A DNA stretch of 64,000 bases from Candidatus Lustribacter sp. (GTDB taxonomy: Bacteria; Vulcanimicrobiota; Vulcanimicrobiia; Vulcanimicrobiales; Vulcanimicrobiaceae). Shown in pieces: positions 2,014-54,618 of this stretch. The position numbers and the translations under genes are program-made. The stretch lies in contig OZ255842.1 of NCBI GenBank assembly GCA_965277805.1, positions 5,312,001 to 5,376,000 on the forward strand, written 5' to 3'. The notes below the pieces were generated by a model. It saw only the letters and a program-made list of their open reading frames with translations. It was not told the DNA's origin and ran no database searches. Every line of letters begins with the position of its first letter. Within the stretch, counting starts at the first letter, position 1.

Positions 2014-2340
2014 TTATCGACCAGCACCCCGATTGCCCGCTTGTACCGGAGGGGGCGAGAAGAGGCTGTCTAGGGCTAGTTTACCCTCAATCACGGCTTG
2101 CACGCGCTCCAGCTCCGCTTTTCGCAGTTCCAGCAGCTGCAGGCGCAAGAACGTCCGGACGAGCCGCCGGGCGTGCGGAGAATAGAGCTCGCGCGCCGTA
2201 CCGGGGCTCAGAACCGGCGGCGCAACGATTGCCCTGTGTACGGTGGTTGCGCTGGATGTCGCGCTTGGTGCAGCCCACGCCGGCCCGGAACCCAGGGCCA
2301 GGCTCAGGACCACGGCGGCGCCGCGCGATCGAAACGTCAT
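2014..2340 (-). CDS. Hypothetical secreted protein (108 aa)
   Basis: Fills the gap between htrA and the likely rnj start. Signal-peptide-like N-terminus (MTFRSR-hydrophobic-AWA|AP) and an amphipathic helix. Confidence 0.45.
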   Translation of the reverse strand: MTFRSRGAAVVLSLALGSGPAWAAPSATSSATTVHRAIVAPPVLSPGTARELYSPHARRLVRTFLRLQLLELRKAELERVQAVIEGKLALDSLFSPPPVQAGNRGAGR

Positions 2341-2389
2341 ACCGGGGCTTCACGCCCGCCCCACCTTTCAGCAAGGACTCTCCGCGAAT

Positions 2390-4096
2390 TTGAACGGTCA
2401 ACCCTACGCCGACACGCTCGTCGTCCCGCCGCCGCCGGACGAACCGTACGTGCGCGTAATCCCACTCGGCGGATGCGGCGAAATCGGCCGCAACATGACC
2501 CTGTTCGAAACGAAGGACGACATCGTCGCCGTCGATTGCGGACTGATGTTCCCCGATGAAGAGATGTACGGCGTCGACATCGTCATCAACGATTTCAGCT
2601 ATTTGCGCGACCGGCGCGACAAGCTGCGCGCGCTGCTCGTCACCCACGGTCACGAAGATCACATCGGCGGTATTCCGTACTTCTTGCGCGAATTTCCGAA
2701 ATGTCCGATCGTCGGCACGCCGCTGACGCTGGCGCTGATCAAGGCCAAGCTCAAGGAACATAAACCGAGCGATCTCGACCTGGTCAAGGTCGAGCCCGGC
2801 GATAAAGTCACCTATGGCGCGTTCACGGCCGAGTTCATCCATATCAATCACTCGCTGGCCGGCGCTTGCGCGATCGCGATCCGCACGCCCCTCGGCGCGT
2901 TCTTTCACACCGGCGATTTCAAGTTCGATCAGACGCCGATCGACGGCGACCCGGCCGACTTCGCCGCGATCGCGCGCGTCGGTGATGCGGGCGTGCTGTG
3001 CATGCTCGCCGATTCGACCAACGCCGAACGGCCCGGGCACACGCTCTCGGAACGTATCGTCGGCGAAGCGTTCTCGAACATCTTCGCCCGCGCGGCGGGA
3101 CGCATCATCGTCACGTCGTTTGCCTCGAACGTGCCGCGCATCCAGCAAGTCGTCGACCAGTGCAAACGCTTCAACCGGCGGCTGGCCTTTCTCGGCCGTT
3201 CGCTGACGAACGTGGTGCAGTACGCGAGCGAACTCAAGTACCTCGACATTCCCGACGGCTTGGTGATCAAGCTCAGCGACGTCGAGTCGTATCCGCCCGA
3301 ACAGGTCGTCGTGATGACGACGGGCTCGCAAGGCGAGCCGATGTCGGCGCTCACGCGGCTCTCGGTGCGCGATCACAAGCTGCTGCGCATCATTCCGGGC
3401 GACACCGTCGTGATCAGCGCAACGCCGATTCCCGGTAACGAGAAGAGCGTCGGCAAGACGATCAACAACCTCTACCGACTCGGCGCGAAAGTGATCCACG
3501 GCTCGAGCGGCAACGCGCACGTGTCGGGACATGCCTCGCAAGAAGAGCTCTTTTTGATGCTCAATCTCGTGCGGCCGAAGCACTTCATTCCCGTGCACGG
3601 TGAATACCGGATGCTCGTGACGCATGCGGGGCTGGCCGAGAAGACCGGCGTCGCCGCCGAGAACACGCACGTCATCGAGGACGGCGACGTCCTCGAATTC
3701 ACGGCCGGCGGCTGCGCGCAAGTCGGCCGCACATACGGCGGCAACGTGATGGTCGACGGCTCGGGTGTCGGCGACGTCGGCGAGGCCGTGCTGCGCGACC
3801 GCAAGCATCTCTCGGCCGACGGTATCATCATGGTCGTCGTCACGGTCGACTCCGAAGAAGCGCGCATCGTCGCAGGGCCCGACCTGATCTCGCGCGGCGT
3901 ATTCTATCTGCCCGAATCGGGCGGCGTGCTGGACGAGCTGAAGGCCACGCTCAACACGATCCTGGCAGGCTGCTCGGCGGAGGGCTTGCGCGACGTCGGC
4001 AACGTGAAAGAACACATCCGCGCCGGCCTCTCCAAAGCCGTCTTCGCCCGCAGCAAACGCCGCCCCATCGTGATCCCCGTCGTCATGGAAGTCTAG
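2390..4096 (+). CDS. rnj: Ribonuclease J
   Basis: IPLGGCGEIGRNM, THGHEDHIGG, HTGDFKFD, GSQGEPMS, HVSGHAS and PVHGEYR motifs. Start moved to the in-frame TTG at 2390 (the track starts at 2243). Confidence 0.95.
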   Translation: MNGQPYADTLVVPPPPDEPYVRVIPLGGCGEIGRNMTLFETKDDIVAVDCGLMFPDEEMYGVDIVINDFSYLRDRRDKLRALLVTHGHEDHIGGIPYFLREFPKCPIVGTPLTLALIKAKLKEHKPSDLDLVKVEPGDKVTYGAFTAEFIHINHSLAGACAIAIRTPLGAFFHTGDFKFDQTPIDGDPADFAAIARVGDAGVLCMLADSTNAERPGHTLSERIVGEAFSNIFARAAGRIIVTSFASNVPRIQQVVDQCKRFNRRLAFLGRSLTNVVQYASELKYLDIPDGLVIKLSDVESYPPEQVVVMTTGSQGEPMSALTRLSVRDHKLLRIIPGDTVVISATPIPGNEKSVGKTINNLYRLGAKVIHGSSGNAHVSGHASQEELFLMLNLVRPKHFIPVHGEYRMLVTHAGLAEKTGVAAENTHVIEDGDVLEFTAGGCAQVGRTYGGNVMVDGSGVGDVGEAVLRDRKHLSADGIIMVVVTVDSEEARIVAGPDLISRGVFYLPESGGVLDELKATLNTILAGCSAEGLRDVGNVKEHIRAGLSKAVFARSKRRPIVIPVVMEV

Positions 4097-4100
4097 TGTC

Positions 4101-4125
4101 GTCCCTAGACAAGCTCGGGATGACA
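4101..4125. repeat. Solo arm of REP-like palindromic family
   Basis: GTCCCTAGACAAGCTCGGGATGACA, differing at one position from 53359-53383 and sharing ends with the full elements at 7302 and 51931. Confidence 0.8.
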
Positions 4126-4154
4126 TAAAGGCAACCGGGACGTAGAAATCGCCG

Positions 4155-4481
4155 ATGAAGAGTCGGCGGTCGTTTTTAGCTTCCGTGGCGTCGGGTGGCA
4201 TTGGGATTGCGCTGGCGAAGGCGGATCCGGCAGTTGCGCAATCGGCGACGCCCTCCCCGGCTCCCTCGGCATCGGGTAAACCCGCGAGTGCGGCCGCGGT
4301 GGCGTTTGCGTTGACGATGCGGCGCTTCGATCCGGCACTCTCCGATAACGACGTGCAGACGATTGCGAAGGCGATCGATGCGAACAACGATGCGGCGCGC
4401 ACGCTGAATCCGAAGAACAAACGGCTGAAGAACGTCGATGCGCCGATCGTGCGCTTCGCCGTCGCCGGCGGTGAGGCGTGA
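4155..4481 (+). CDS. Small Tat-signal protein coupled to an amidase (possible GatC/AtzG-like partner)
   Basis: MKSRRSFLAS twin-arginine motif and Pro/Ala linker. The stop overlaps the amidase start (GTGA). Confidence 0.75.
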   Translation: MKSRRSFLASVASGGIGIALAKADPAVAQSATPSPAPSASGKPASAAAVAFALTMRRFDPALSDNDVQTIAKAIDANNDAARTLNPKNKRLKNVDAPIVRFAVAGGEA

Positions 4482-5884
4482 ACGCTGACGACGTCGCGTA
4501 TTCCGACATCGTCGACTTGCAGCGGCTGCTCACCGCCAAAACGATCTCGTCGGTCGAACTGACGCAGCTCTACCTCGACCGCCTCGAAAAATACGGCCCC
4601 GTGTACAACGCCGTTATCACGGTATTGCACGAACGCGCGCTGCGCGAAGCGCGGCGCGCCGACCGCGAACGCGCCGCCGGCCGCGTGCGCGGCCCGCTGC
4701 ACGGCATCCCGTACGGCGTGAAAGATCTGCTCGCGACGCCCGATGCGCCGACGACCTGGGGCGCGCAGCCGTATCGCCGGCAGCGCTTCGATTACGATGC
4801 GACGGTCGTGACAAAGCTTACCGATGCGGGTGCGGTGCTACTCGCGAAGCTCGCGATGATCGAACTCGCGGGCGGCTTCGGCTACAACGACGCCGACGCG
4901 TCGTTCACCGGCCCCGCGCGCACGCCGTGGAATCCGGCATTTTGGGCCGGCGGTTCGTCGAGTGGTTCGGGCATCGCGGTCGCCGCGGGTTTGGTCGGTT
5001 TTGCGATCGGTTCGGAAACCGCGGGCTCGATCGTGTTTCCGTCGATGGCGAACGGCGTCACGGGTTTGCGGCCGACCTTCGGACGCGTGAGCCGGCACGG
5101 CGCGATGGCGCTGTGCTGGACGCTCGACAAACTCGGTCCGCTCGGCCGCAGCGCCCGCGACGGCGAGATCGTGTTACGCGCGATCGCCGGGGCGGACGAC
5201 AACGATCCGACGGCCGTCGACCGCAGCTTTCCCGCGCCGCGCCGCCGGCCGCGCATCGCGGTGTTGAAGAACGCGACGAAAGGCTGCATGCCGGCGGTCG
5301 CGCGCAATTTTCGCGCCACGCTGGCGCAGCTTGCGACGTTCTGCGATCTCGTGCAGAACGTCGCGCTGCCCGATCTGCCCTACGGCGCCGCGGTCGGCAC
5401 GATCGTCAACGCCGAAGGCGCGGCCGCGTTTCGCGATCTGATCGAATCCGGCAAGTCGCGCACGCTGCGGCAAAAGGACGACCGCTACGGCGGTTACGTC
5501 GCATACGCGACGCCGGCCGTCGATTACATCGACGCCCAACGGCAACGCACGCTGATGGTGCACGCGCTGCACGAGGCGTTCGGGGCCTACGACGCGGTCG
5601 CCGGACCGACGACGCCGACGATTACGTACCCGATCGGTAAGCCGTTCGACAAAACGTATACGGAGTACAGCGGCGCCCCCGACCTGATCGCGCCCGGAAA
5701 TTTGGCCGGCCTGCCGGCACTCGCGATGCCCAACGGGTTCGGCGATCACGGTTTGCCGACGAGCATCACGCTGCAGGGTACCGCCTTCAACGAGACGCGC
5801 TTGACCGCAATCGGTAAGCGGTACCAGATGCTGACCGATTTCCATCGCCGCCGTCCGCCGCTGGTCACCAAGCTGCGCGCGTGA
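4478..5884 (+). CDS. Amidase signature family enzyme (GatA-like)
   Basis: GPLHGIPYGVKD, GGSSSGS and GSETAGSI (Lys-Ser-Ser triad), plus GLRPTFGRVS. Confidence 0.93.
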   Translation: MNADDVAYSDIVDLQRLLTAKTISSVELTQLYLDRLEKYGPVYNAVITVLHERALREARRADRERAAGRVRGPLHGIPYGVKDLLATPDAPTTWGAQPYRRQRFDYDATVVTKLTDAGAVLLAKLAMIELAGGFGYNDADASFTGPARTPWNPAFWAGGSSSGSGIAVAAGLVGFAIGSETAGSIVFPSMANGVTGLRPTFGRVSRHGAMALCWTLDKLGPLGRSARDGEIVLRAIAGADDNDPTAVDRSFPAPRRRPRIAVLKNATKGCMPAVARNFRATLAQLATFCDLVQNVALPDLPYGAAVGTIVNAEGAAAFRDLIESGKSRTLRQKDDRYGGYVAYATPAVDYIDAQRQRTLMVHALHEAFGAYDAVAGPTTPTITYPIGKPFDKTYTEYSGAPDLIAPGNLAGLPALAMPNGFGDHGLPTSITLQGTAFNETRLTAIGKRYQMLTDFHRRRPPLVTKLRA

Positions 5885-7326
5885 TCGCCGCAGCCGCGAT
5901 TCTCGTTGCGTTGACGGTGCTGCGCGCGTACGCCGCGTTCAATGTACCGCTGACCGCGGATGAGGCGTACTACTGGACATGGAGCCTGCACCCGGCGTAC
6001 GGCTACACCGATCATCCGCCGATGGTCGCGTGGCTGATTTGGCTCGGCACGTTGTTCGGGCAAGGGCCGGGATTCGTGCGCTTGCCGTTCGTGTTATGCG
6101 AAGCGGTTGCGGCTGCGGCCGTGGGACGCGCGGCGCTGCTTATAACGAACAGCACGCGGGCCGGCGCGATCGCGCTGCTGCTGTTCGCGCTGATTCCGCA
6201 AACGAAGTTGTCGCTCGGCGAAGCATTGCCCGATGGCGCGTACATGGCGGCGTGGGCGCTCGCGCTGTGGGGCGCGGTTGCGCTCGACCGCCGGCCGTCG
6301 CTGCGCAACGCCGTGGGGTTGGGACTCGCGCTCGCCGCTGCCGTGCTCTCGCGCACGTTCGGCTGGGCGCTCGTCGTGGGTGTGGTCGCGTGGTCGTTCG
6401 AACCGTCGCGGCGCGCGCGCCTGTGGCCGCTGCTGACCTGTAGCGCAGCGATCGTCGCGGCGTTCTACGCGCCGTTCATCGGCTGGAACGCCGCGCACAA
6501 CTGGGAGAACTTCGCGTTCAGCTTCCAGACGCGCCAGCACTTCGGTCTCGCCGCAACGCATCTGGTCGATGTCTCGACCGTGCGTTTCGTAATCTACGCG
6601 GCGTTGCTGGCCGGGCTGACGTGGTGGATTGCATTGCGCCGCGAACCGCGCGTCACGCTCGTCGCCTGGACCGCGCTTCCGCTGCCCGCCGCGCTGCTCG
6701 CGCTCTCGTTCGTGACGACGACCGAATCGTATTGGATCATCGGCCCCGCCGCCTCGCTCGCGCTCGGCGCCGGTATCGCACTCGACAAAGCAGCCGCCGT
6801 CTGGCGACGCTCGATCTTGGCAGTTCTCGGCATCGGCACAGCCTACACCACGGCAGCCGCGCTGTTTCTCACGTTGCCGGAAGCAGCCCAAGCCGCGGCG
6901 TTTACCGCGATGCCGTCGTTGCGCGCCCCGTTCGCATCGGGCGTCTACGCCTTCGCCCCACTCGCCGATCGCCTGCGCACGCTCGCCGCAGCAGACAACA
7001 ACGCCGTCATCCTCACCGATCGCTACGAAACCTCAGCCGAACTCCTCCGCTACGGCTTCGACTCCCGCCTCGCCCGCGCTTTGCCGCAACAAGCACAATG
7101 GGAACGCTGGCACGCCGGCGAGCGACCCATACAACACGCCCTCATGGTAACCTACGCTGCGCCGCTGAGCGCCGATCCCGAACTCGATCAGCAGATCCAC
7201 GCCGCATTCGCACGCGTTACACCGCTACCGGACATCACCCTAGCGCATGCGGGAGTTCCCGAAGACACCTATTACGTGATGCAACTCGACGACCCACGCA
7301 TTGTCATCCCGAGCAAAGCGCCGTAG
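5881..7326 (+). CDS. GT39/ArnT-PMT-like membrane glycosyltransferase
   Basis: DEAYYWTWS...GYTDHPPM motif and many TM helices. The last codons and the stop lie inside a repeat element. Confidence 0.88.
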   Translation: MIAAAAILVALTVLRAYAAFNVPLTADEAYYWTWSLHPAYGYTDHPPMVAWLIWLGTLFGQGPGFVRLPFVLCEAVAAAAVGRAALLITNSTRAGAIALLLFALIPQTKLSLGEALPDGAYMAAWALALWGAVALDRRPSLRNAVGLGLALAAAVLSRTFGWALVVGVVAWSFEPSRRARLWPLLTCSAAIVAAFYAPFIGWNAAHNWENFAFSFQTRQHFGLAATHLVDVSTVRFVIYAALLAGLTWWIALRREPRVTLVAWTALPLPAALLALSFVTTTESYWIIGPAASLALGAGIALDKAAAVWRRSILAVLGIGTAYTTAAALFLTLPEAAQAAAFTAMPSLRAPFASGVYAFAPLADRLRTLAAADNNAVILTDRYETSAELLRYGFDSRLARALPQQAQWERWHAGERPIQHALMVTYAAPLSADPELDQQIHAAFARVTPLPDITLAHAGVPEDTYYVMQLDDPRIVIPSKAP

Positions 7327-7454
7327 GCGCGGCGACGAGGGACCGCCACGATCTTTGCTACTGAGTGCGATGCGCGAAGGCGGTCGGACTCCGAATACCA
7401 AGATGCTCTCGGGTTCCTCGTTTACGTGCCTTCGGCACTTCGCTCGGAATGACA
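7302..7454. repeat. Full REPIN/MITE-like palindromic element (two inverted ~43-bp arms plus unique spacer)
   Basis: Left arm TGTCATCCCGAGCAAAGCGCCGTAGGCGCGGCGACGAGGGACC; right arm GGTTCCTCGTTTACGTGCCTTCGGCACTTCGCTCGGAATGACA. Lies between convergent genes. Confidence 0.85.
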
Positions 7455-7463
7455 GGAAGAAGA

Positions 7464-7868
7464 CTATGGTTCGTTCGTGAGGGCGGCGATGCCGGCTGAG
7501 GCTAGTTCTTCGTCGCGGTTTTTGGCGTTGCCGGTTACGCCGATGGCGGCGACGGTTCGGCCTGATGTGTCGCGTACGGGGACGCCGCCGGGGAGTGCGC
7601 AGAGCATGGGGTCGCCGTAGTAGGCGATTTGCCGGTGCGCCGTGTCCAGTTCTTCGTGGAAAGCGCTGGTGTTGCGGTCCATGATTGCGGCGGTGTAGGC
7701 TTTGCGCTGCGTCATCCGCATCGAGCGCGGACGGCAGCCGTCCATGCGCTGCGCGGCGATGAGGTCGCCATGATCGTCGACGATCGCGACCGCAACGGTG
7801 AAGCCGGCGGCTTCTGCGGCAGCAACCACCGCATCAATCGCCGCTCGGGCACTAGCAACGGAAATCAT
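7464..7868 (-). CDS. GlcG/HbpS-family heme-binding protein
   Basis: VAVAIVDDHG...RMDG...KAYTA...GGVPV...AIGVTG pattern. Confidence 0.88.
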   Translation of the reverse strand: MISVASARAAIDAVVAAAEAAGFTVAVAIVDDHGDLIAAQRMDGCRPRSMRMTQRKAYTAAIMDRNTSAFHEELDTAHRQIAYYGDPMLCALPGGVPVRDTSGRTVAAIGVTGNAKNRDEELASAGIAALTNEP

Positions 7869-7884: not shown

Positions 7885-8508
7885 TCATCGTACGGTTCTC
7901 CCCAAGCGTGGAATGCCTCCGGCGATTGCGGCGGCGATGCCGAGCATCGTGATGCCGAACAATACGCCGCCGGTCAGGTCGGTGACGAAGTGGGCGCCGA
8001 GCGCGAGGCGCGACCAGATGATGCCGATCGCCCACAGCGCGAGCACCGCGGATAGTGCGCGCCGCAGCGGCAACGGCATGTCGCTGGTCGCGGCGTAGTA
8101 ACTCCACAAGCCGTAGACGACGATCGCGAACATCGCGTGGCCGCTCGGATACGACCACGTCGTTTCGTGAATGATGTGCCAGTAGTCCGGGCGCGTGCGC
8201 ATGAAGAGGTTCTTCACCGCGTCGCTGGCTTGCCACGCGACGAGCGTCGTCGCAATGGAAAATATTACGCGCGCGCGCCAAGCCGGGCGAAGCACGGCCA
8301 GCACGATCCCCGCGATGCCCAACGCAACGAGCACGTACCACCAGCACGATGCGGTGAACACGAGCGCGACGTGCGTCCAATGCCCGGCGAGCGCGCGTCC
8401 GGCGACGTCGATGCCCTCGGGCGGCTTTTCCGAGACGGTGCTGCCGAGCAGTCCGCAGCCGAGCGCGGCGATGAGCGCAACGATCGCGGCGCCGAGCCGC
8501 GCGGTCAC
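7885..8508 (-). CDS. PAP2-family phosphatase (undecaprenyl-PP phosphatase-like)
   Basis: KNLFMRTRP, YPSGHA and SRLALGAHFVTD, the three PAP2 motifs. Confidence 0.92.
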   Translation of the reverse strand: MTARLGAAIVALIAALGCGLLGSTVSEKPPEGIDVAGRALAGHWTHVALVFTASCWWYVLVALGIAGIVLAVLRPAWRARVIFSIATTLVAWQASDAVKNLFMRTRPDYWHIIHETTWSYPSGHAMFAIVVYGLWSYYAATSDMPLPLRRALSAVLALWAIGIIWSRLALGAHFVTDLTGGVLFGITMLGIAAAIAGGIPRLGRTVR

Positions 8509-10898
8509 GCGAAGAGGTCTTGCTGCTGGTCGTTCTTGCCGAGCCGGCCGGCGATCTGTTCGAGTTCGGCGAGGCCGATCAGGATGCGGCGCGGCTTCGT
8601 GCCCTCGTGCGGTCCGACGACTTTGAAATCTTCGAGCTGCTTCATCAGCCGCACGGCGCGCGGGTGACCGATCGCGAACTGCGACTGCAGCGCCGCCGTC
8701 GACGCATACTTGGTGTCGATGATGAATTGCGCGGCATCGTAGCAGAGCGGATCGATGTTCTTGCGGTCTTTGCCGTCGTCGTCATCGATCGGCTCGACGT
8801 CCATCTCGATCAAGTTGTCGGGCCGCGCTTGCGCCGACCAGAACTCGACGAGGCGATTCACCTCGGCGCCGGTAATCAGCGCGCCTTGCGAACGCACCGG
8901 CTTCGGCGCGTCGATCGGTAGATAGAGCATGTCGCCGCGGCCGAGCAGGCGTTCCGCGCCGCCCATGTCGAGGATCGTCCGCGAATCGACTTGTGACGAC
9001 ACCGCGAACGCGATGCGCGAGGGGATGTTGGCTTTGATGATGCCGGTGATCACGTCGACCGACGGCCGCTGCGTCGCGACGATCAGGTGAATGCCGGTCG
9101 CGCGGGCGAGTTGTGCGAGCCGGCAGATCAGCGTTTCAACTTTGCCCGGCGCCACGAGCATCAGGTCGGCAAGCTCGTCGATGATGATCACGATGTAGGG
9201 GAGCTGATCGTTGGGATACTTGGCGTTCCACTCTTCGATCTTGCGCACGCCGGCCTTGGCGAAGCGTTCGTAGCGCTGATCCATCTCTTTGGTCATCTCG
9301 AACAGCGCGCCGGCGGCCATACGCGGATCGGTGATGACGGGGTTCTTGAGATGCGGGATGCCGTTGTAGACGCTCAGCTCCACGCGTTTGGGATCGATCA
9401 TCACCATCTGGACTTGATCGGGGGTGGCGCTGACCAAGAGCGAGGCGATGATGCAGTTCAGGCAGACGGACTTACCGCTGCCGGTCGCGCCGGCGACGAG
9501 CAGATGCGGCATTTTGCCGAGGTCGCCGTAGATCGGCCGCCCGGTGATGTCTTTGCCGAGTGCCATGTTGAGCGGCGGGATCGTTCCGCGCGCCGGCATC
9601 GCTTCCATGATCTCGCGCACCGCGACGACCGACACCGTGGCGTTGGGAATTTCGATGCCGACTGCCGACTTGCCGGGGATCGGCGCTTCGATGCGCACCG
9701 ACGTGGCGGCGAGCGCCAGCGCGAGGTCGTCGGCGAGCGCGCTGATGCGCGCGATCTTTACGCCGCGTTCGGGCTTGAGCTCGTAGCGCGTAATCGACGG
9801 ACCGCGCTCGATGTGCGTGACCTTGGCGCCCACGCCGAACGACGCGAGCGTGTCTTCGAGCACCGCCGAACGGCTCGAGTCGTCGAGCTTTTGCAGCTGC
9901 GGCGGATCGAACAGGGCGAGATCGGGCAGCCGGTACGTGCGCTGCGCCGGCTCGTAGGTGCCGCCGATCGCCGGCTCGGCAACGGCGGTAACGGGAACCG
10001 GAACGGCTACGGCAGCGGCTTCATCGAGGTCGTCGTCGTCCTCGCCGTCTTCCTCCTCGTCGGCTTCCTCTTCGTCGTCGTCCTCGAATTCGTCGTCTTC
10101 GTCCTCATCCTCATCGTCGTCATACTCGTCATCGTCGTCTTCATCGGCGTCCTCGTCGACGAGTTCCAACTCTTCGGCGTCCTCGATCTCGTCTTCGTCT
10201 TCGTCCGCGTCGATCGTTTCGGTCGCTTCGGCGACGTCATAGATGACGCGCGCGGGAGCGGCCGGCGGTGCGACGGCGACGGCCGTGCCCGCCGTTGCGG
10301 CGGCCATGCGCGGCAAGAGTGCCGGTAAATGAAACGCTTCGCGCAGCGAACGCGGACCCGGGGCGCGTGCGGGTTCTTCGGCGATCACGCGGGGCGTGCG
10401 TTCCGACGGCGGCGGACGGAGCGCCGCGAGGCGCGCGATGCACCAGCCGATGACTTTCTTGACCGACACGTTGGTGATCCACACGGTGATCCCGAGCGCT
10501 GCGACGATCAGCACGATCACCGCGCCGACGTCGCCGAGCAGCGCGCGCATGCCGGCGTCGAGCGAACGGCCGATGAAACCGCCGTTGGTGCCGAAGGCCG
10601 CGTCGACGATCAGAAAATACGCGCACGCCGCGCCGCCCAGCGTCGCGATCATGCGCGGCACGTTGATCTCGAGAAACACGATCGTTGCAAGCAGCGCAAC
10701 CAGCAACGGAAACCAGCCGGCGGCGCGCCCGAACAGCGCGTGCAGCGCGGCAGCCGTGTAGAAACCGAACAAACCGGTGTGCGCGGGTGGGACGATGAGC
10801 GAGACGGCGAGCAGAAGCGCAATGCCGAGCGCAATGATCCCGGCGATCTCGTAGTTCCAACGCGTCGTCACGCTCGGCTTCCGGCGAACGCGAGCCAT
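8505..10898 (-). CDS. ftsK: DNA translocase FtsK/SpoIIIE
   Basis: N-terminal TM domain, RIEAPIPGKS, MPHLLVAGATGSGKSV, IDELADLM, ATQRPSVDVITG, GAERLLGRGDML and a gamma domain. Start set at the ATG of MARVRRK (10898) to avoid overlap with the divergent gene. Confidence 0.96.
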   Translation of the reverse strand: MARVRRKPSVTTRWNYEIAGIIALGIALLLAVSLIVPPAHTGLFGFYTAAALHALFGRAAGWFPLLVALLATIVFLEINVPRMIATLGGAACAYFLIVDAAFGTNGGFIGRSLDAGMRALLGDVGAVIVLIVAALGITVWITNVSVKKVIGWCIARLAALRPPPSERTPRVIAEEPARAPGPRSLREAFHLPALLPRMAAATAGTAVAVAPPAAPARVIYDVAEATETIDADEDEDEIEDAEELELVDEDADEDDDDEYDDDEDEDEDDEFEDDDEEEADEEEDGEDDDDLDEAAAVAVPVPVTAVAEPAIGGTYEPAQRTYRLPDLALFDPPQLQKLDDSSRSAVLEDTLASFGVGAKVTHIERGPSITRYELKPERGVKIARISALADDLALALAATSVRIEAPIPGKSAVGIEIPNATVSVVAVREIMEAMPARGTIPPLNMALGKDITGRPIYGDLGKMPHLLVAGATGSGKSVCLNCIIASLLVSATPDQVQMVMIDPKRVELSVYNGIPHLKNPVITDPRMAAGALFEMTKEMDQRYERFAKAGVRKIEEWNAKYPNDQLPYIVIIIDELADLMLVAPGKVETLICRLAQLARATGIHLIVATQRPSVDVITGIIKANIPSRIAFAVSSQVDSRTILDMGGAERLLGRGDMLYLPIDAPKPVRSQGALITGAEVNRLVEFWSAQARPDNLIEMDVEPIDDDDGKDRKNIDPLCYDAAQFIIDTKYASTAALQSQFAIGHPRAVRLMKQLEDFKVVGPHEGTKPRRILIGLAELEQIAGRLGKNDQQQDLFA
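10020..10215 (-). repeat. Low-complexity Asp/Glu tract in the FtsK linker
   Basis: About 65 residues, mostly D/E (DADEDEDEIEDAEELELVDEDADEDDDDEYDDDEDEDEDDEFEDDDEEEADEEEDGEDDDDLDE). Confidence 0.9.
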
Positions 10899-10961
10899 TG
10901 TAACGACACGTTGGCGACCGCGCAGCGGAGTCCCCGCCGGGATCGCGGAACCGTGATCGCC

Positions 10962-12035
10962 GTGGCACCCCCAACAATCGTCGTTCTCGGCGGCGACCAA
11001 ACCGGTCAAGAACTCTTAATCGAAGCACTGCGCGTGATCGCGCCCGAGGTGATCGGGCTGCCGATCATTCTCGAACACTTCGATCTCTCGCTCGAGAAGC
11101 GCCGCGCGACGAAGAACGCGATCGTGCTCGAAGCCGCCGATGCGATGAAGCGCGCAAAGCTCGGCCTCAAAGCTGCGACGATTACGCCCGAAGGCAAGGG
11201 CGACGTGGGCTCGCCCAACGCGATCGTGCGCCAAGCGATCGACGGCAAGGTGATCGTCCGCACCGGGCGCCGCATTCCGGGGGTCCGGCCGGTCGCCGGC
11301 ATCCACGCCCCGATTTCGGTCGTGCGGATGGCCGTCGGCGATGCCTACGGTGCCAAGGAGTGGCGCGAGGGCTCGGGGGACGACGAGGTCGCGTTCCGGA
11401 CCGAACGGATCGAGCGCGGCACCTGCCGCATGGTCGCCGAGTACGCTTTTCTCCACGCGAAGAAGACCAACTCGAAAGTCTTCGGCGGCCCCAAGTACAC
11501 CGTCAGCCCGGTCTACGAGGGGATGCTGAAGGAAGAGATGGACGCCGCGGCCGCCCGCTACCCGGACGTGCCCTACGAGCCCCAGCTGATCGATGCGACG
11601 TACGCGCTGCTGATCTCGACCTCTGGCGACCCGCTGGTGATCCCCTCGCTAAACCGCGACGGCGACTGCCTCTCGGATCTGGTCATGCAGCTCTTCGGCT
11701 CGATCGCCGGAGCCGAGTCGGTCCTGATGTCGTTCGACGCCGACCACCGCCCCGACGTCGTCATGGCGGAGGCCCCGCACGGGACGGCCCCGCGCCTCTT
11801 CGGTAAGAACGTCGCCAATCCGATGGCCATGATCCTGGCCTGCGGCGCGCTGCTCTCCCATATCGACGACCGCCGGGCCGTCAGCGCCTCGCGAGCGATC
11901 TACGAAGGAACGCTTGAAACGGTCCGCGAGGGAACCTCGACCAGTGACCTCGGCGGACATGCCTCGACGACCGAATTCACCGACGCCGTCATCGCGAAGA
12001 TTAAAGCTAAATTGGACGTTTGGGCAACTCTTTAA
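10962..12035 (+). CDS. Isocitrate/isopropylmalate dehydrogenase family protein
   Basis: IVVLGGDQTGQE, SPNAIVR, NRDGDCLSDL and EAPHGTAP...NVANPMAMI. Likely GTG start at 10962 (or 10953). Confidence 0.9.
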   Translation: MAPPTIVVLGGDQTGQELLIEALRVIAPEVIGLPIILEHFDLSLEKRRATKNAIVLEAADAMKRAKLGLKAATITPEGKGDVGSPNAIVRQAIDGKVIVRTGRRIPGVRPVAGIHAPISVVRMAVGDAYGAKEWREGSGDDEVAFRTERIERGTCRMVAEYAFLHAKKTNSKVFGGPKYTVSPVYEGMLKEEMDAAAARYPDVPYEPQLIDATYALLISTSGDPLVIPSLNRDGDCLSDLVMQLFGSIAGAESVLMSFDADHRPDVVMAEAPHGTAPRLFGKNVANPMAMILACGALLSHIDDRRAVSASRAIYEGTLETVREGTSTSDLGGHASTTEFTDAVIAKIKAKLDVWATL

Positions 12036-51580: not shown

Positions 51581-51919
51581 ATGATCATGCGGCTTTGCGG
51601 CTTTCTCGCCGCTCTCGGACTCATTTCCAGCGTGACCGTTGCGTCGGCCCAGCCGGCGGCAATGAAGATGCCCAAAAAAGTCACCGCGTTCTACATGTGC
51701 AGCGGGCTGCACCAGAAAGCGATTTACGACAACGTAAAAAATCGCGTGTCGTTCGTGTGGGGCGCAAAAGACTACCATCTGCCGCGCGTTCCGTCGGCCG
51801 ACGGTTCACGCTACGCGGGCAACGGCCTCGAGTGGTGGTCGAAGGGCCCCAACGTCACCCTCTCAACCCTCCCCGAACACAACGTCCTCGCCACCTGCAC
51901 CCCCGGTAAGCGCTTCTAA
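51581..51919 (+). CDS. MliC/PliC-family lysozyme inhibitor
   Basis: Signal peptide, YMC, SADGSRY...WWSKG and a C-terminal Cys. Confidence 0.85.
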   Translation: MIMRLCGFLAALGLISSVTVASAQPAAMKMPKKVTAFYMCSGLHQKAIYDNVKNRVSFVWGAKDYHLPRVPSADGSRYAGNGLEWWSKGPNVTLSTLPEHNVLATCTPGKRF

Positions 51920-51930
51920 CTTTTCCCCAC

Positions 51931-52117
51931 TGTCATCCCGAGCGAGCGCCGTAGGGCGCGTAGACGAGGGACCAGTGATAATCCTCAATATCGGCCGGGG
52001 CAATTCCCCGAACGTGGGTACTTTGGCGTGCACGTTGGTGGAGTTGCCCTGACTGACGTTCCGGAGTTTCTCTCGTCCCTCGTCTACGCGCCCTACGGCG
52101 CTCCGCTCGGGATGACA
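51931..52117. repeat. Full REPIN/MITE-like palindromic element
   Basis: Arms 51931-51972 and 52075-52117 are reverse complements apart from one indel, around a ~102-bp unique spacer. Lies between convergent genes. Confidence 0.92.
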
Positions 52118-52125
52118 AATTGTTT

Positions 52126-53346
52126 TTAGGCGAGGGTGGCGGCTATTGTTGAGCGGAGGCGTTGGACGGCGTCGCGGATTTCTTCTTGCGTGATGATGAG
52201 CGGGGGGATGAAGCGTAGCGTGTTGCGGCCGGCGGCGTTGATGATCAGGCCGAAGTCGAGGCCGTGCGGCACGAACTCCGCGGCCTTGCGCGGCTCGCGC
52301 ACGGGCAGGCCCAGCATCAAGCCGTGACCGCGCGGCGGCTCGAAGACGTCGGGCCACTGATGCGCGATCGAGCGCAGCTCGTTCCGCAAGAGGGCGCCGA
52401 CGGTTTCGACGTGCGTGTCGAGATCGAGCACGTCGCGGATGGCCAGGTGCTCGAGCGCTGCCGCGGCGGGCACCGGCGAGCCGCCGAAGGTCGTGCCGTG
52501 ATCGCCGGGCTTGAGGCTCGTGGCGGCATCTCCGCGCACGAGCAGCGCGCCGATCGGCAGACCGTTGGCGAGCGACTTCGCGAGCGTGAACGCGTCCGGC
52601 TGCACTTCGTAAAGCTGCGAGGCGAACAGACGCCCGAGGCGTCCCATGCCGACTTGCACTTCATCGAAGATCAATAGCGCGCCGCGTTGCGTGCAGAAGT
52701 CGCGGGCGGCGGCCAGAAATTCCGGAGTCGCGGGCAGCACGCCGCTTTCACCCTGCACCGGCTCGACGATGAACGCGGCGGTGCGGTCGTCGATCCCCTT
52801 CGAAAGCGCGTCGATGTCGTTGAACGGCGTGAATGCGAAGCCTTCCGGTAACGGCGCGAAGCCTTCTTTGTAGGCCGGCGCGTCGGTGGCAGCGAGCGCG
52901 CCCATCGTGCGGCCGTGGAACGAATCGTTGCAGGCGAGAATCGTCGTGCGCTCTTTTTCGCCCTTGCGCCAAGCGAACTTCCGAGCGAGCTTGATCGCGG
53001 CTTCGTTTGCTTCGGTGCCGGAATTGCAGAAGAAGACCGTATCGAAACCGGACAATTCGGCCAAACGGTCGGCCAGGATGCCGGCCGGTTCGTGGTGGTA
53101 GAGGTTGCTGCAGTGCACGAGCGTCGCCGCCTGATCGGCGACGGCACGCGTGATGCGCGGATGCGCGTGCCCGAGCGCGACGACCGCGAGACCGGCGACC
53201 ATGTCGATGTAGCGGTTGCCCGATTCATCGAAGAGATACACGCCCTCGCCGCGCACGATGTTGATCTCTTGGCGCGCGTAGTTCGCCATGAGATGCGGAT
53301 GCCGCGTCATGATCCGTGCGCCGTGTTGAACTGCGGGAGAAGTCAT
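52126..53346 (-). CDS. argD: Acetylornithine aminotransferase
   Basis: FCNSGTEANE, SFHGRT, EPVQGESG, FDEVQVG, AKSL and HGTTFGG; last gene of the arg operon. Confidence 0.93.
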   Translation of the reverse strand: MTSPAVQHGARIMTRHPHLMANYARQEINIVRGEGVYLFDESGNRYIDMVAGLAVVALGHAHPRITRAVADQAATLVHCSNLYHHEPAGILADRLAELSGFDTVFFCNSGTEANEAAIKLARKFAWRKGEKERTTILACNDSFHGRTMGALAATDAPAYKEGFAPLPEGFAFTPFNDIDALSKGIDDRTAAFIVEPVQGESGVLPATPEFLAAARDFCTQRGALLIFDEVQVGMGRLGRLFASQLYEVQPDAFTLAKSLANGLPIGALLVRGDAATSLKPGDHGTTFGGSPVPAAAALEHLAIRDVLDLDTHVETVGALLRNELRSIAHQWPDVFEPPRGHGLMLGLPVREPRKAAEFVPHGLDFGLIINAAGRNTLRFIPPLIITQEEIRDAVQRLRSTIAATLA

Positions 53347-53358
53347 ACTCTTGTGGCG

Positions 53359-53383
53359 GTCCCTCGACAAGCTCGGGATGACA
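53359..53383. repeat. Solo arm of REP-like family, between argJ and argD
   Basis: GTCCCTCGACAAGCTCGGGATGACA. Confidence 0.82.
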
Positions 53384-53388
53384 TTGTA

Positions 53389-54618
53389 CTAGGTGCGGTA
53401 ATGTGCGTTAATCCTGACGTAGTCGGTGGAGAAGTCGCAGCCCCAGCCGGTGGCGCAGGCCTCGCCCATGCCGAGGTCGAGCGTGATCTCGATCGTCTGC
53501 TCCTCGAGCAGCAAGTGCGCTTCGGCTTCGCTCAACGCTTCGATCGCGCCGACTTCGACCCACGACTGTCCGCCGAGTTTGAGCGACCACTTCTCCGGAT
53601 CGAGTCCCGCGCGCGCCGCACCGGCCGAAGCGATGATGCGGCCCCAGTTCGGGTCTTCGCCGTAGAGCGCGGTCTTCACGAGCGAGCTGTTGATCACCAT
53701 GCGCGCGATCGTCCGCGCCTGGACTTCGTCCTTGGCGCCGGTGACGTTGAACACGAGCGTCTTGGTCGCGCCTTCGCCGTCGCGCACCATCGCCACGGCG
53801 AGGTCGCGGCACAGCGCGGAGAGTGCGGCGCGGAAGCCCGGCGTTGCGCCGTCGGTGCCGGGACGCGCGAACGCGTAGCACGAGTCGTTGGTCGACATGT
53901 CGCCGTCGACCGAGATCATGTTGAAGCTGCCGTCGACCGCTTCGCGCAGCGCATCTTGCAGGCCGGCGCGTGACATCGGCGCGTCGGTGACGACGAACGA
54001 CAGCATCGTCGCCATCGAGGGGCTGATCATGCCCGAGCCCTTGGCGATGCCGCCGACGACGTAGCGGTGTTCGCCCTCGTGCCACGCATACGCGGCCATC
54101 TTCGGCACGTGATCGGTCGTCATGATTGCTTCGGCCGCTTCGAAGCACGCCTCGGGCCCGTGCGAGAGCGCTTTCACCGCGCGTTCGAGACCCTTGGAGA
54201 GCCGGTCCATCGGTAGATACACGCCGATGACGCCGGTCGATGCGACGACGACTTGAGTCGGGCGCAGACCGAGCAGCGTTGCGGCTTGGCGCGCGGTGGC
54301 GCGCGCATCGCGCAACCCGCGCTCGCCGGTGCACGCGTTCGCGCAGCCGGCGTTGACGACGATCGCGCACATCTGCTCGCCGTCGAATTCGAGATGGCTG
54401 GTCGAAGCGATCAACGGCGCAGCTTTGATCTCGTTGGTCGTCACGACCTCCGCGCACACGTGCGGAACCTCGAGCGCGATCAACGCGAGATCGGTCTTGC
54501 GCTTCTTGATTCCGGCATGAACGCCGGCCAGACGGACGCCCGGCACGGCACCGAGTCCACCCCGGACCTCGATGAGCCGGATCGATTCAGCCGACAGCGG
54601 TGCGAGCATCGAGTCCAC
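53389..54618 (-). CDS. argJ: Ornithine acetyltransferase / N-acetylglutamate synthase ArgJ
   Basis: NAGCANACTG, STGVIG, AKGSGMISPSMATML, DGDMSTND, DGEGATK and DPNWGRI. Confidence 0.97.
   Translation of the reverse strand: MDSMLAPLSAESIRLIEVRGGLGAVPGVRLAGVHAGIKKRKTDLALIALEVPHVCAEVVTTNEIKAAPLIASTSHLEFDGEQMCAIVVNAGCANACTGERGLRDARATARQAATLLGLRPTQVVVASTGVIGVYLPMDRLSKGLERAVKALSHGPEACFEAAEAIMTTDHVPKMAAYAWHEGEHRYVVGGIAKGSGMISPSMATMLSFVVTDAPMSRAGLQDALREAVDGSFNMISVDGDMSTNDSCYAFARPGTDGATPGFRAALSALCRDLAVAMVRDGEGATKTLVFNVTGAKDEVQARTIARMVINSSLVKTALYGEDPNWGRIIASAGAARAGLDPEKWSLKLGGQSWVEVGAIEALSEAEAHLLLEEQTIEITLDLGMGEACATGWGCDFSTDYVRINAHYRT

Follow-up and report, generated by a model that had tools for sequence, protein, structure and literature searches.

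Silent positions of gene ends avoid G and T beside the outer end of a dispersed repeat in a Candidatus Lustribacter genome

In a stretch of 64,000 nucleotides (nt) from Candidatus Lustribacter sp. (contig OZ255842.1, positions 5312001-5376000; hereafter the window), short palindromic elements lie between genes whose ends are rich in C on one side and rich in G on the other, which raises the question of what couples the composition of a gene to a repeat that lies next to its stop codon. A sequence-only reading of the window had counted this mirror-image skew by hand and had proposed either a mutational footprint of repeated cutting and repair or C-rich, G-poor zones that load the transcription termination factor Rho. 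Here, the repeat was followed through the whole genome (label G000; a single contig of 5.53 megabases (Mb), 64% GC), and the skew at its arms is real, large, polar and tied to the presence of the repeat. Specifically, in the last 150-250 nt of genes running into the outer end of an arm, silent positions avoid G and T. This pattern most likely marks a zone in which transcription stops, and it could be a mutational scar.

The repeat is defined by an arm that starts TGTCAYYCCGAGC and finishes GAGGRAC, with TGTCAT marking its outer end. The pattern GTCAYYCCGAGC...GAGGRAC has 215 exact copies genome-wide, as opposed to 1 in a reversed-genome control; by strand, exact matches to the degenerate 12-mer number 124 forward and 91 reverse (1 and 0 in the reversed genome). 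The arms group into 179 loci, with 41 inverted pairs, 74 + 53 solo arms and a few arrays. Within the window there are two of the full elements (7303-7453 and 51932-52116) along with two solo arms (12-mers at 4113 and 53371). Genes were called with a purpose-made codon-score caller, whose 4280 genes are a crude set rather than a curated annotation; the raw skew metaplot around arms is independent of these calls. Skew is (C-G)/(C+G) throughout, on the + strand in the metaplot and on the coding strand in gene-tail counts.

All of the hand counts that first suggested the skew proved exact. Beside the first palindromic element (element 1) they were C29/G12 at 7021-7080 and G23/C15 with T18/A4 at 7501-7560; beside the second (element 2), C30/G9 at 51841-51900 and G24/C10 with T18/A8 at 52141-52200; and at the solo arm near 4101, C29/G13 at 4021-4080 and G22/C13 at 4141-4200. 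Among all genomic 60-nt windows the left-hand lines are rare (|C-G| of at least 17 in 0.21% and of at least 21 in 0.04%), and the right-hand lines are milder (at least 8 in 13% and at least 13 in 1.5%). The mirror skew was also kept after averaging over the 179 loci, where 60-nt bins gave +0.17, +0.15 and +0.11 on the left and -0.11, -0.08 and -0.06 on the right; A/T skew parallels C/G skew, and both are gone by about 300 nt. Equal skew was not seen at element-free gene ends, which lie at 0.00-0.05, with tail means of 0.02-0.06, and arm-adjacent ends differ from the element-free classes with Mann-Whitney p values of 4e-23 to 3e-33. The mean skews of the last 120 nt are as follows.

Gene ends with an arm nearby: n=152, 0.191
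Convergent element-free gene ends: n=1133, 0.058
Co-directional gene ends, gap <40 nt: n=1209, 0.022
Co-directional gene ends, gap 40-150 nt: n=345, 0.041
Co-directional gene ends, gap >150 nt: n=524, 0.025

Plain coding-strand bias is ruled out as a cause by the skew of the coding strand itself, which is just +0.02 overall and +0.05 immediately before stops (3547 genes). The original lines were chosen by eye and the gene caller is crude, and either could produce an artefact; nonetheless, the gene-call-free metaplot over 179 loci is skewed, controls differ at p=4e-23, and a second species, the repeat-rich relative G002, repeats the polarity at its own 39 arms (+0.143 on the outer and -0.04 on the inner side, background -0.007 with a standard deviation of.088). 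The probability that chance, line picking or gene calling explains the pattern is therefore negligible. Conversely, of the genome's 45 most skewed tails, 37 are followed by an arm at a distance of up to about 220 nt, compared with 215 of 3509 genes overall. Two convergent pairs (genome 658029-661388 and 5034490-5036424) are armless yet have very skewed tails (third-position skew.66-.80); they are parted by short TGTCATT...AATGACA-ended sequences that may be mini-elements or excision remnants.

With respect to where the skew resides, the reading frames are intact, as the sequence-only reading had stated, and the shift is carried by third-codon-position usage, with positions 1 and 2 barely moving. 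At third positions of arm-adjacent tails, relative to controls, G falls from.36 to.22 and T from.09 to.07, and C rises from.47 to.57 and A from.076 to.135. Our main set comprises the last 120 nt of 98 tails that face an outer end, with 1133 element-free convergent tails as controls. At fourfold-degenerate sites these tails have C.669, G.176, A.117 and T.038, the controls.454,.383,.083 and.080, respectively. A-ending codons gain as well, in tails versus controls, for Glu (GAA,.73/.53), Lys (AAA,.73/.44) and Gln (CAA,.68/.39), T-ending twofold codons are reduced, and amino-acid composition is nearly constant. The G/A and T/C ratios each drop about 3-fold, at twofold and fourfold sites alike, while C/A is steady (5.7 vs 5.5); the rule is to avoid G and T equally, not to prefer C. 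Fourfold skew is 0.58 (0.53-0.63) within 120 nt of the stop, 0.31 at 120-240 nt and 0.12 at 240-360 nt, with a control value of 0.08, and the finer profile starts at about 0.6-0.7 beside the stop and declines steadily to baseline by 250-300 nt.

Three general causes of biased silent sites were tried and rejected. Translational optimisation would have a different signature, since A occupies.034 of fourfold sites, and AAA stands at.27, in a set consisting of EF-G/EF-Tu (located by Pfam) and a putative ribosomal-protein cluster (inferred from canonical gene order only). Replication direction had no effect on the skew. A context-specific deaminase was set aside because there is no context dependence, the G/C odds ratios being 0.18-0.38 in all contexts.

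In the window, the two full elements and the tails that meet them are arranged as follows (ORF, open reading frame; third-position C/G counts are per 60 nt, upstream from the stop).

7303-7453: palindromic element 1 (genome pair 5319303-5319453), with outer 12-mers GTCATCCCGAGC at 7303-7314 and an inverted partner at 7442-7453; its left arm contains the stop codon of ORF 5881-7326
6900-7302, + strand: G/T-poor silent-site zone, the tail of ORF 5881-7326, reading toward the left outer end of element 1; C/G of the ORF 10/5, 6/4, 9/6, 8/4, 15/1, 14/2, 11/7, 6/8
7464-7703, - strand: G/T-poor silent-site zone, the tail of ORF 7464-7868, reading toward the right outer end of element 1; C/G of the ORF 12/1, 15/0, 14/4, 13/2, 9/10, and C35 G2 A13 T0 at third positions of the last 150 nt
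51932-52116: palindromic element 2, with 73-nt arms that are 81% complementary, a 14-nt centre and outer 12-mers at both ends
51800-51919, + strand: skewed tail of ORF 51581-51919, toward the left outer end of element 2; C/G 16/1, 12/6, 6/8
52126-52245, - strand: skewed tail of ORF 52126-53289, toward the right outer end of element 2; C/G 13/0, 15/4, 11/9

Solo arms reveal the polarity that full elements conceal. Where the outer TGTCAT end points toward a gene (n=65), third positions in the last 120 nt of that gene have C at.59-.62 and G at.17-.22; where the inner side does (n=59), the values are.48 and.27-.31. The skew at solo arms thus belongs to the outer end only, and full palindromes, which expose outer ends on both sides, show its mirror image. 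The mirror skew accordingly holds for full palindromes, and solo arms are one-sided. The solo arms of the window and their neighbours are the following.

4097-4126, - strand: solo arm (12-mer 4113-4124), outer TGTCAT end rightward, away from the RNase J-like gene
3617-4096, + strand: skewed tail of the RNase J-like ORF 2243-4096, facing the inner side of that arm; third positions of the last 150 nt C34 G10 A6 T0
4148-4180, + strand: terminator-like hairpin (9 pairs) followed by a CGTTTTT T run, just beyond the solo arm
53355-53383, - strand: solo arm (12-mer 53371-53382), outer end rightward
53389-53450, - strand: short skewed tail of ORF 53389-54618, facing the outer end of that arm; third-position C/G 15/2, 11/9

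The effect near 53359 had been described as weak and right-sided; its side is confirmed and is explained by an outer end that faces right, with the inner side meeting the 5' end of ORF 52126-53289 (C28/G15). Less can be made of the co-oriented RNase J-like (rnj) gene, which had been offered as an argument for an element-centred process: the line at 4141-4200 overlaps the hairpin and T run, and it is the inner side of the arm that rnj meets. This junction brings together an arm and a classic-looking terminator, and in a close relative an outward-facing arm lies 5 nt past the RNase J-like stop.

Relatives permit the gene to be separated from the repeat. Exact arm counts within the genus are 215 in the studied genome, 242 in G002, 236 in G004, 143 in G007, 48 in G006 and 12 in G005; kin genomes are not independent, and the orthologue samples are small. 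In the repeat-poor G005, of which 2.0 Mb were compared, 519 of 3363 query tails had orthologues after filters, 21 of them element-adjacent. Third-position skew is 0.57 in these 21 genes and 0.07 in their G005 orthologues (Wilcoxon p=1e-5), none of which (0/21) has an arm and which are indistinguishable in skew from the orthologues of control genes (p=0.41). With armless orthologues at 0.07, the skew does not come with the gene as such. At the RNase J-like gene, third-position C/G in the last 150 nt is 34/10, 32/7 and 30/13 in the arm-bearing G000, G004 and G007, and 28/14, 24/15 and 21/16 in the armless G002, G006 and G005; 11 other genera have C 14-27 and G 15-21. The C-terminal protein sequence is nearly identical in this comparison. 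Nine tail ORFs of G002 have fourfold C.63 and G.22.

These comparisons bear on the idea that repeats land, or survive, only beside tails that are already C-rich, which we regard as very unlikely. It draws some support from the repeat-rich relative (0.8 Mb and 157 orthologous tails compared), where the counterparts of nine G000 tails with an outward arm are armless and still mildly skewed (.55 vs.28, with a baseline of.16-.18), and from the differing arm arrangements that three relatives carry at one rnj site. The empty G002 sites are mixed, however, several of them being at baseline (C/G 21/20, 21/21 and 22/15) and two lying beside other tandem repeats. The baseline value of the G005 orthologues also runs counter to a prior preference, as does the rarity of armless skewed tails, which make up 8 of the 45 most extreme; nothing else in the genome yields such tails. 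The tandem repeats in G002 (about 32 nt and about 45 nt) are an observation in their own right: they lie downstream of armless skewed tails with C/G of 28/14 and 38/7, past the RNase J-like stop and at the orthologue of G000 5413199-5414170, and suggest that other kinds of repeat may go with recoding.

In terms of cause, the reading we prefer, tentatively and at not quite an even chance, is that the gene-tail skew is a selected, unstructured, G/U-poor RNA zone that loads Rho. According to this model, the silent positions of the last 150-250 nt would have been pushed from G/U to C/A wherever a gene meets an outer end, which would leave the protein unchanged and make the RNA tail C-rich, G-poor and weakly folded, like a Rho utilization (rut) site. 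Rho would then load on the naked gene tail and halt RNA polymerase at the repeat or shortly beyond it, and termination would shield both the repeat and the adjoining, mostly convergent, gene from read-through. Rho as the reader of the tail signal, termination at these sites and the reason why the outer end alone counts are the parts of the model that we infer. A rut site is characterized, in the available sections of PMC6407284, as a C-rich, G-poor (C/G>1), unstructured and ribosome-free zone of about 70-80 nt with a pause hairpin within 150 nt downstream. Of the 98 tails, 70% contain a 78-nt window with C/G of at least 2, compared with 11% and 7% in control sets of 1133 and 869. For the last 120 nt, folding is predicted at -30.1 kcal/mol versus -43.4 kcal/mol in controls (p=6e-24), with the same genes at -43.3 kcal/mol when measured 600 nt upstream, and the genome has a rho gene.

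The placement of the arms is consistent with such a zone. Outward-facing arms lie no more than 30 nt from a stop codon in 101 of 115 cases. The 115 divide into 87 at convergent and 28 at co-directional junctions, with skew in both kinds, and TGA stops are scarce beside them (20/115, vs 40% genome-wide). A spacer of this size between stop and repeat is too short for a rut of 70-80 nt, so that any such signal must sit in the silent codon positions. The spacers themselves are T-rich rather than A-rich, and their skew falls off with length while that of the codons behind them does not.

Spacers of up to 10 nt (291 nt in total): skew.55; adjoining fourfold sites.55
Spacers of 11-30 nt (684 nt, 36 genes): skew.22; adjoining fourfold sites.69
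Spacers of 31-60 nt (338 nt, 9 genes): skew -.02; adjoining fourfold sites.63

Arms located within genes and read in the same sense lack upstream skew in 7 of 10 cases. As the effect is strongest in genes reading toward the arm, spacers are less skewed, most in-gene arms have no skew and protein divergence is not clearly raised, most of the evidence falls on the side of a selected RNA zone. The pair of options put forward in the sequence-only reading was well chosen, with Rho loading the better supported and a footprint of cutting and repair the less probable.

Several observations weigh against the Rho-loading model. The zone lies in translated sequence up to the stop and would be free of ribosomes only if polymerase outruns them. 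Gene ends without an element have no rut-like skew, which would leave the use of Rho oddly confined to repeats. A is as welcome as C, to judge by the steady C/A ratio, and strand-asymmetric mutation gives the same result. Solo arms fold weakly by prediction (-5.6 and -7.3 kcal/mol, z about +0.5), and because they are not stable RNA hairpins a simple pause hairpin explains neither them nor the polarity. Three of the 10 in-gene arms do have strong upstream skew. Moreover, genes reading away from an outer end, where the skew is about 2.5 times weaker than in genes reading toward one, still carry a mirror skew on their own coding strand: fourfold C.355/G.497 in their first 150 nt (.431/.404 in all genes), C.416/G.466 at 150-300 nt (.451/.420 in all genes), and C.38/G.44 in nine with conserved N-termini (.45/.41 in relatives; controls.48/.39). 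Non-coding outer flanks are skewed too (0.24, 0.14 and 0.12). A model restricted to sense RNA predicts neither the flanks nor the genes reading away. To this extent the element-centred process suggested earlier stands as a weak component; as the main effect it does not, since most evidence lies elsewhere.

The distribution of the motif beyond the genus presents a further difficulty. A short-arm motif at 80 metagenome loci (97 arms) has no outer-flank skew (-.02 to +.02), compared with +0.23 and +0.13 for the same pattern in G000 (69 arms). Only the two metagenome loci nearest to G000 (91% and 82% identity) are skewed, at +.14 to +.20. With metagenome arms unskewed, the phenomenon belongs to the lineage and not to the motif as such, and its function would have to be lineage-specific. 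At the metagenome loci C is instead slightly in excess (+.07 to +.09, p about 1e-4) on the downstream side of the arm, an unexplained feature with no upstream counterpart. Metagenome contigs with this 24-nt arm pattern range in GC content from.34 to.72, which suggests spread across distant lineages, and in G172, from another genus of the same family, the arm 12-mer forms head-to-tail arrays, spaced mostly by 21-30 nt and in some cases by 48 nt, where G000 has inverted pairs.

A strand-specific mutational footprint would account for the skew of non-coding flanks and of genes that read away. In this explanation, which we consider doubtful though serious, recurrent processing at the outer end would leave the outward strand single-stranded for about 250 nt, by way of a nick, priming, repair synthesis or outward transcription with an R-loop, and C and A would be deaminated. 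The outcome would be G-to-A and T-to-C changes on the inward-reading strand, with a GC-favouring bias piling the product up as C, and the arm would act as a miniature origin in skew. The signs are indeed origin-like, with G and T enriched on the strands that lead away from the element, and the equal, about 3-fold fall of G/A and T/C with C/A flat is as expected. An equilibrium model in which only G-to-A and T-to-C are raised, by about 5-fold, gives A.14, C.66, G.17 and T.03, close to the observed.12,.67,.18 and.04; since two transitions suffice to reproduce the composition, composition alone cannot decide between selection and mutation. Polarity toward one end fits site-specific nicking or priming, the three skewed in-gene arms are accommodated, the effect appears only in genomes with an expanded repeat, and the arm resembles NTS/SRM repeats, which are cut as single strands by Ssn nucleases (available sections of PMC11893778). 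The corresponding view of the arm itself, a polar hotspot of strand-specific processing where nicking or priming at the TGTCAT end would, over evolutionary time, rewrite the silent sites of any gene within about 250 nt and make a mobile repeat a local directional mutator with a mini-origin signature, is to our minds likewise improbable, without being far-fetched.

The same data sets nonetheless contain much that such a footprint handles poorly. Skew is much lower in the spacers next to the element than at the fourfold sites farther back, and these spacers are rich in T and not in A. The effect is 2.5 times weaker in genes reading away, where an origin-like asymmetry should ignore gene direction and be at least as strong in non-coding DNA, and the 7 unskewed in-gene arms are awkward as well. 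There is no dependence on sequence context or replication direction, and chromosomal replication exposes single strands far less than a fourfold skew of 0.58 would require. Neither protein nor silent divergence near arms gives a clear sign of hypermutation: silent differences between rnj and a relative number 27/143 for the tail, against 83/348 for the body, and amino-acid identity over the last 50 residues is.79 vs.77, in divergence tests that are underpowered (n=11-12).

Nor was a candidate enzyme for the processing found. The Y1 (RAYT) transposase profile PF01797 has no match in G000, in a search whose control was positive in 6 of 14 genomes, and the GIY-YIG profile PF01541 matches a 676-amino-acid (aa) ORF, which from its length alone we take to be UvrC, and a 222-aa ORF, neither of them a small, repeat-flanked Ssn-like gene. 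The 222-aa ORF (genome 1335070-1335738, minus strand) has an N-terminal GIY-YIG motif (Pfam E=5.5e-7) and no arms nearby, and is absent from the five same-genus genomes searched; its omission by the gene caller suggests atypical composition. Set against a MITE, which has terminal inverted repeats and a parent element that carries genes, the repeat family has inverted ends, and only three arm pairs lie 350-4000 nt apart, with 1 to 4 called genes between them; among the genome's arm pairs no clear gene-carrying parent element was found.

Selection on the RNA could also act independently of Rho, by keeping the gene end unfolded and so preventing mispairing with the repeat, by easing ribosome release, or through another protein that binds single-stranded RNA. 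We judge this distinctly unlikely. Avoiding G and U does minimise pairing (-30 vs -43 kcal/mol), the stop codon is within 30 nt of 101 of the 115 outward arms, and the skew is concentrated in the translated part rather than the spacer. It leaves unexplained, however, why non-coding flanks and genes that read away are skewed, codon choice differs from the translational optimum, solo arms fold so weakly that there is little structure to protect against, and a reach of about 250 nt far exceeds a ribosome footprint. Taken together, these considerations leave selection for Rho loading as the reading that we prefer.

The elements have further features of interest. Full elements are nested, and in several G000 copies the arms enclose a further palindrome (GAGTGCGA.CGCGAAGGCGGGAGCAGTGG ... 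with its complement), at 7345-7440 and 51985-52060 in the window and at 1-1016 and 5414208-5414409 in the genome. No known RNA family in Rfam matched in the window at gathering scores. A sigma-70 scan for outward promoters, a simple and weak test, gave none in 3900-7700 and one in 51600-53600 that points inward. Apart from the elements, positions 10015-10212 of the window contain TCGTCG/TCCTC repeats with a period of 12 to 15 nt, inside the minus-strand ORF 8505-11009; translated on that strand, they would form an acidic, Asp/Glu-rich, low-complexity stretch.

Silent-site recoding beside repeats is a strong pattern and apparently an undescribed one, as no description of silent-site skew beside bacterial repeats was found in the full texts that were searched. 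In a single genome, the silent positions of the last 50-80 codons have been rewritten in more than 100 genes, in a manner tied to the orientation of the neighbouring repeat. If selection is responsible, reading frames can house termination signals written in their choice of codons, and a family of repeats can impose recoding on its neighbours as it spreads; this would bear on the role of REP-like repeats and on how transcripts end in high-GC bacteria without classic terminators, and would provide a sequence-only marker for such termination sites. If mutation is responsible, small repeats are local directional mutators that bias analyses of codon usage, synonymous divergence (dS) and selection nearby. 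In either case, gene-end composition near such repeats should not be read as neutral, and repeat-rich and repeat-poor species within one genus constitute a ready natural experiment.

Among known systems, the leading strand of replication and the non-template strand of transcription are generally G+T-rich, and the arms share with this asymmetry the axis of G and T versus A and C and the switch of sign at a point. They differ from replication strand asymmetry in scale (250 nt rather than megabases), in a far larger fourfold amplitude of 0.58 and in following gene direction instead of fork direction. The tails are also similar to Rho-dependent terminators, with a weakly folded C>G zone of at least 78 nt, in a genome with a rho gene (available sections of PMC6407284); within the next 150 nt comes a candidate pause hairpin, a long palindrome in full elements but a weakly folding sequence in solo arms, which carry the skew nonetheless; unlike these, the zone occupies translated silent positions, is tied to one end of a repeat and welcomes A as much as C. 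Whole-gene purine bias has been interpreted as protection from Rho under runaway transcription (PMC13323073, in the portion available), and here the shared logic is reversed, in that a local zone at the gene end appears to invite Rho.

The nearest likenesses of the repeat itself are to E. coli REP/BIME sequences and to NTS/SRM repeats. REPs end in a terminal GTAG, and the arms here do not. As with REP/BIME, these are abundant short palindromes, mostly at convergent and co-directional junctions. E. coli REPs are reported to act partly as Rho-dependent terminators and as RNA stabilisers, which offers the Rho-loading model a precedent, and the REP motif is said not to have the C>G skew of many Rho terminators (10.64898/2026.03.23.713779, passages on REPs); upstream recoding as seen here does not feature in those passages, and no Y1 (RAYT) transposase was found in the present genome. 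Similar to NTS/SRM repeats, as presented in the available sections of PMC11893778, the arms are oriented, have a GTCAT start and then a CCC...GGG hairpin, and occur in hundreds of copies around genes. Set by eye against the degenerate SRM motif given there, the GTCAY start and the hairpin fit and at least one position does not. The arms depart from the Ssn/SRM system in that no arm-flanked Ssn-like gene was found and in their flanking skew, a feature not mentioned for SRM in those sections.

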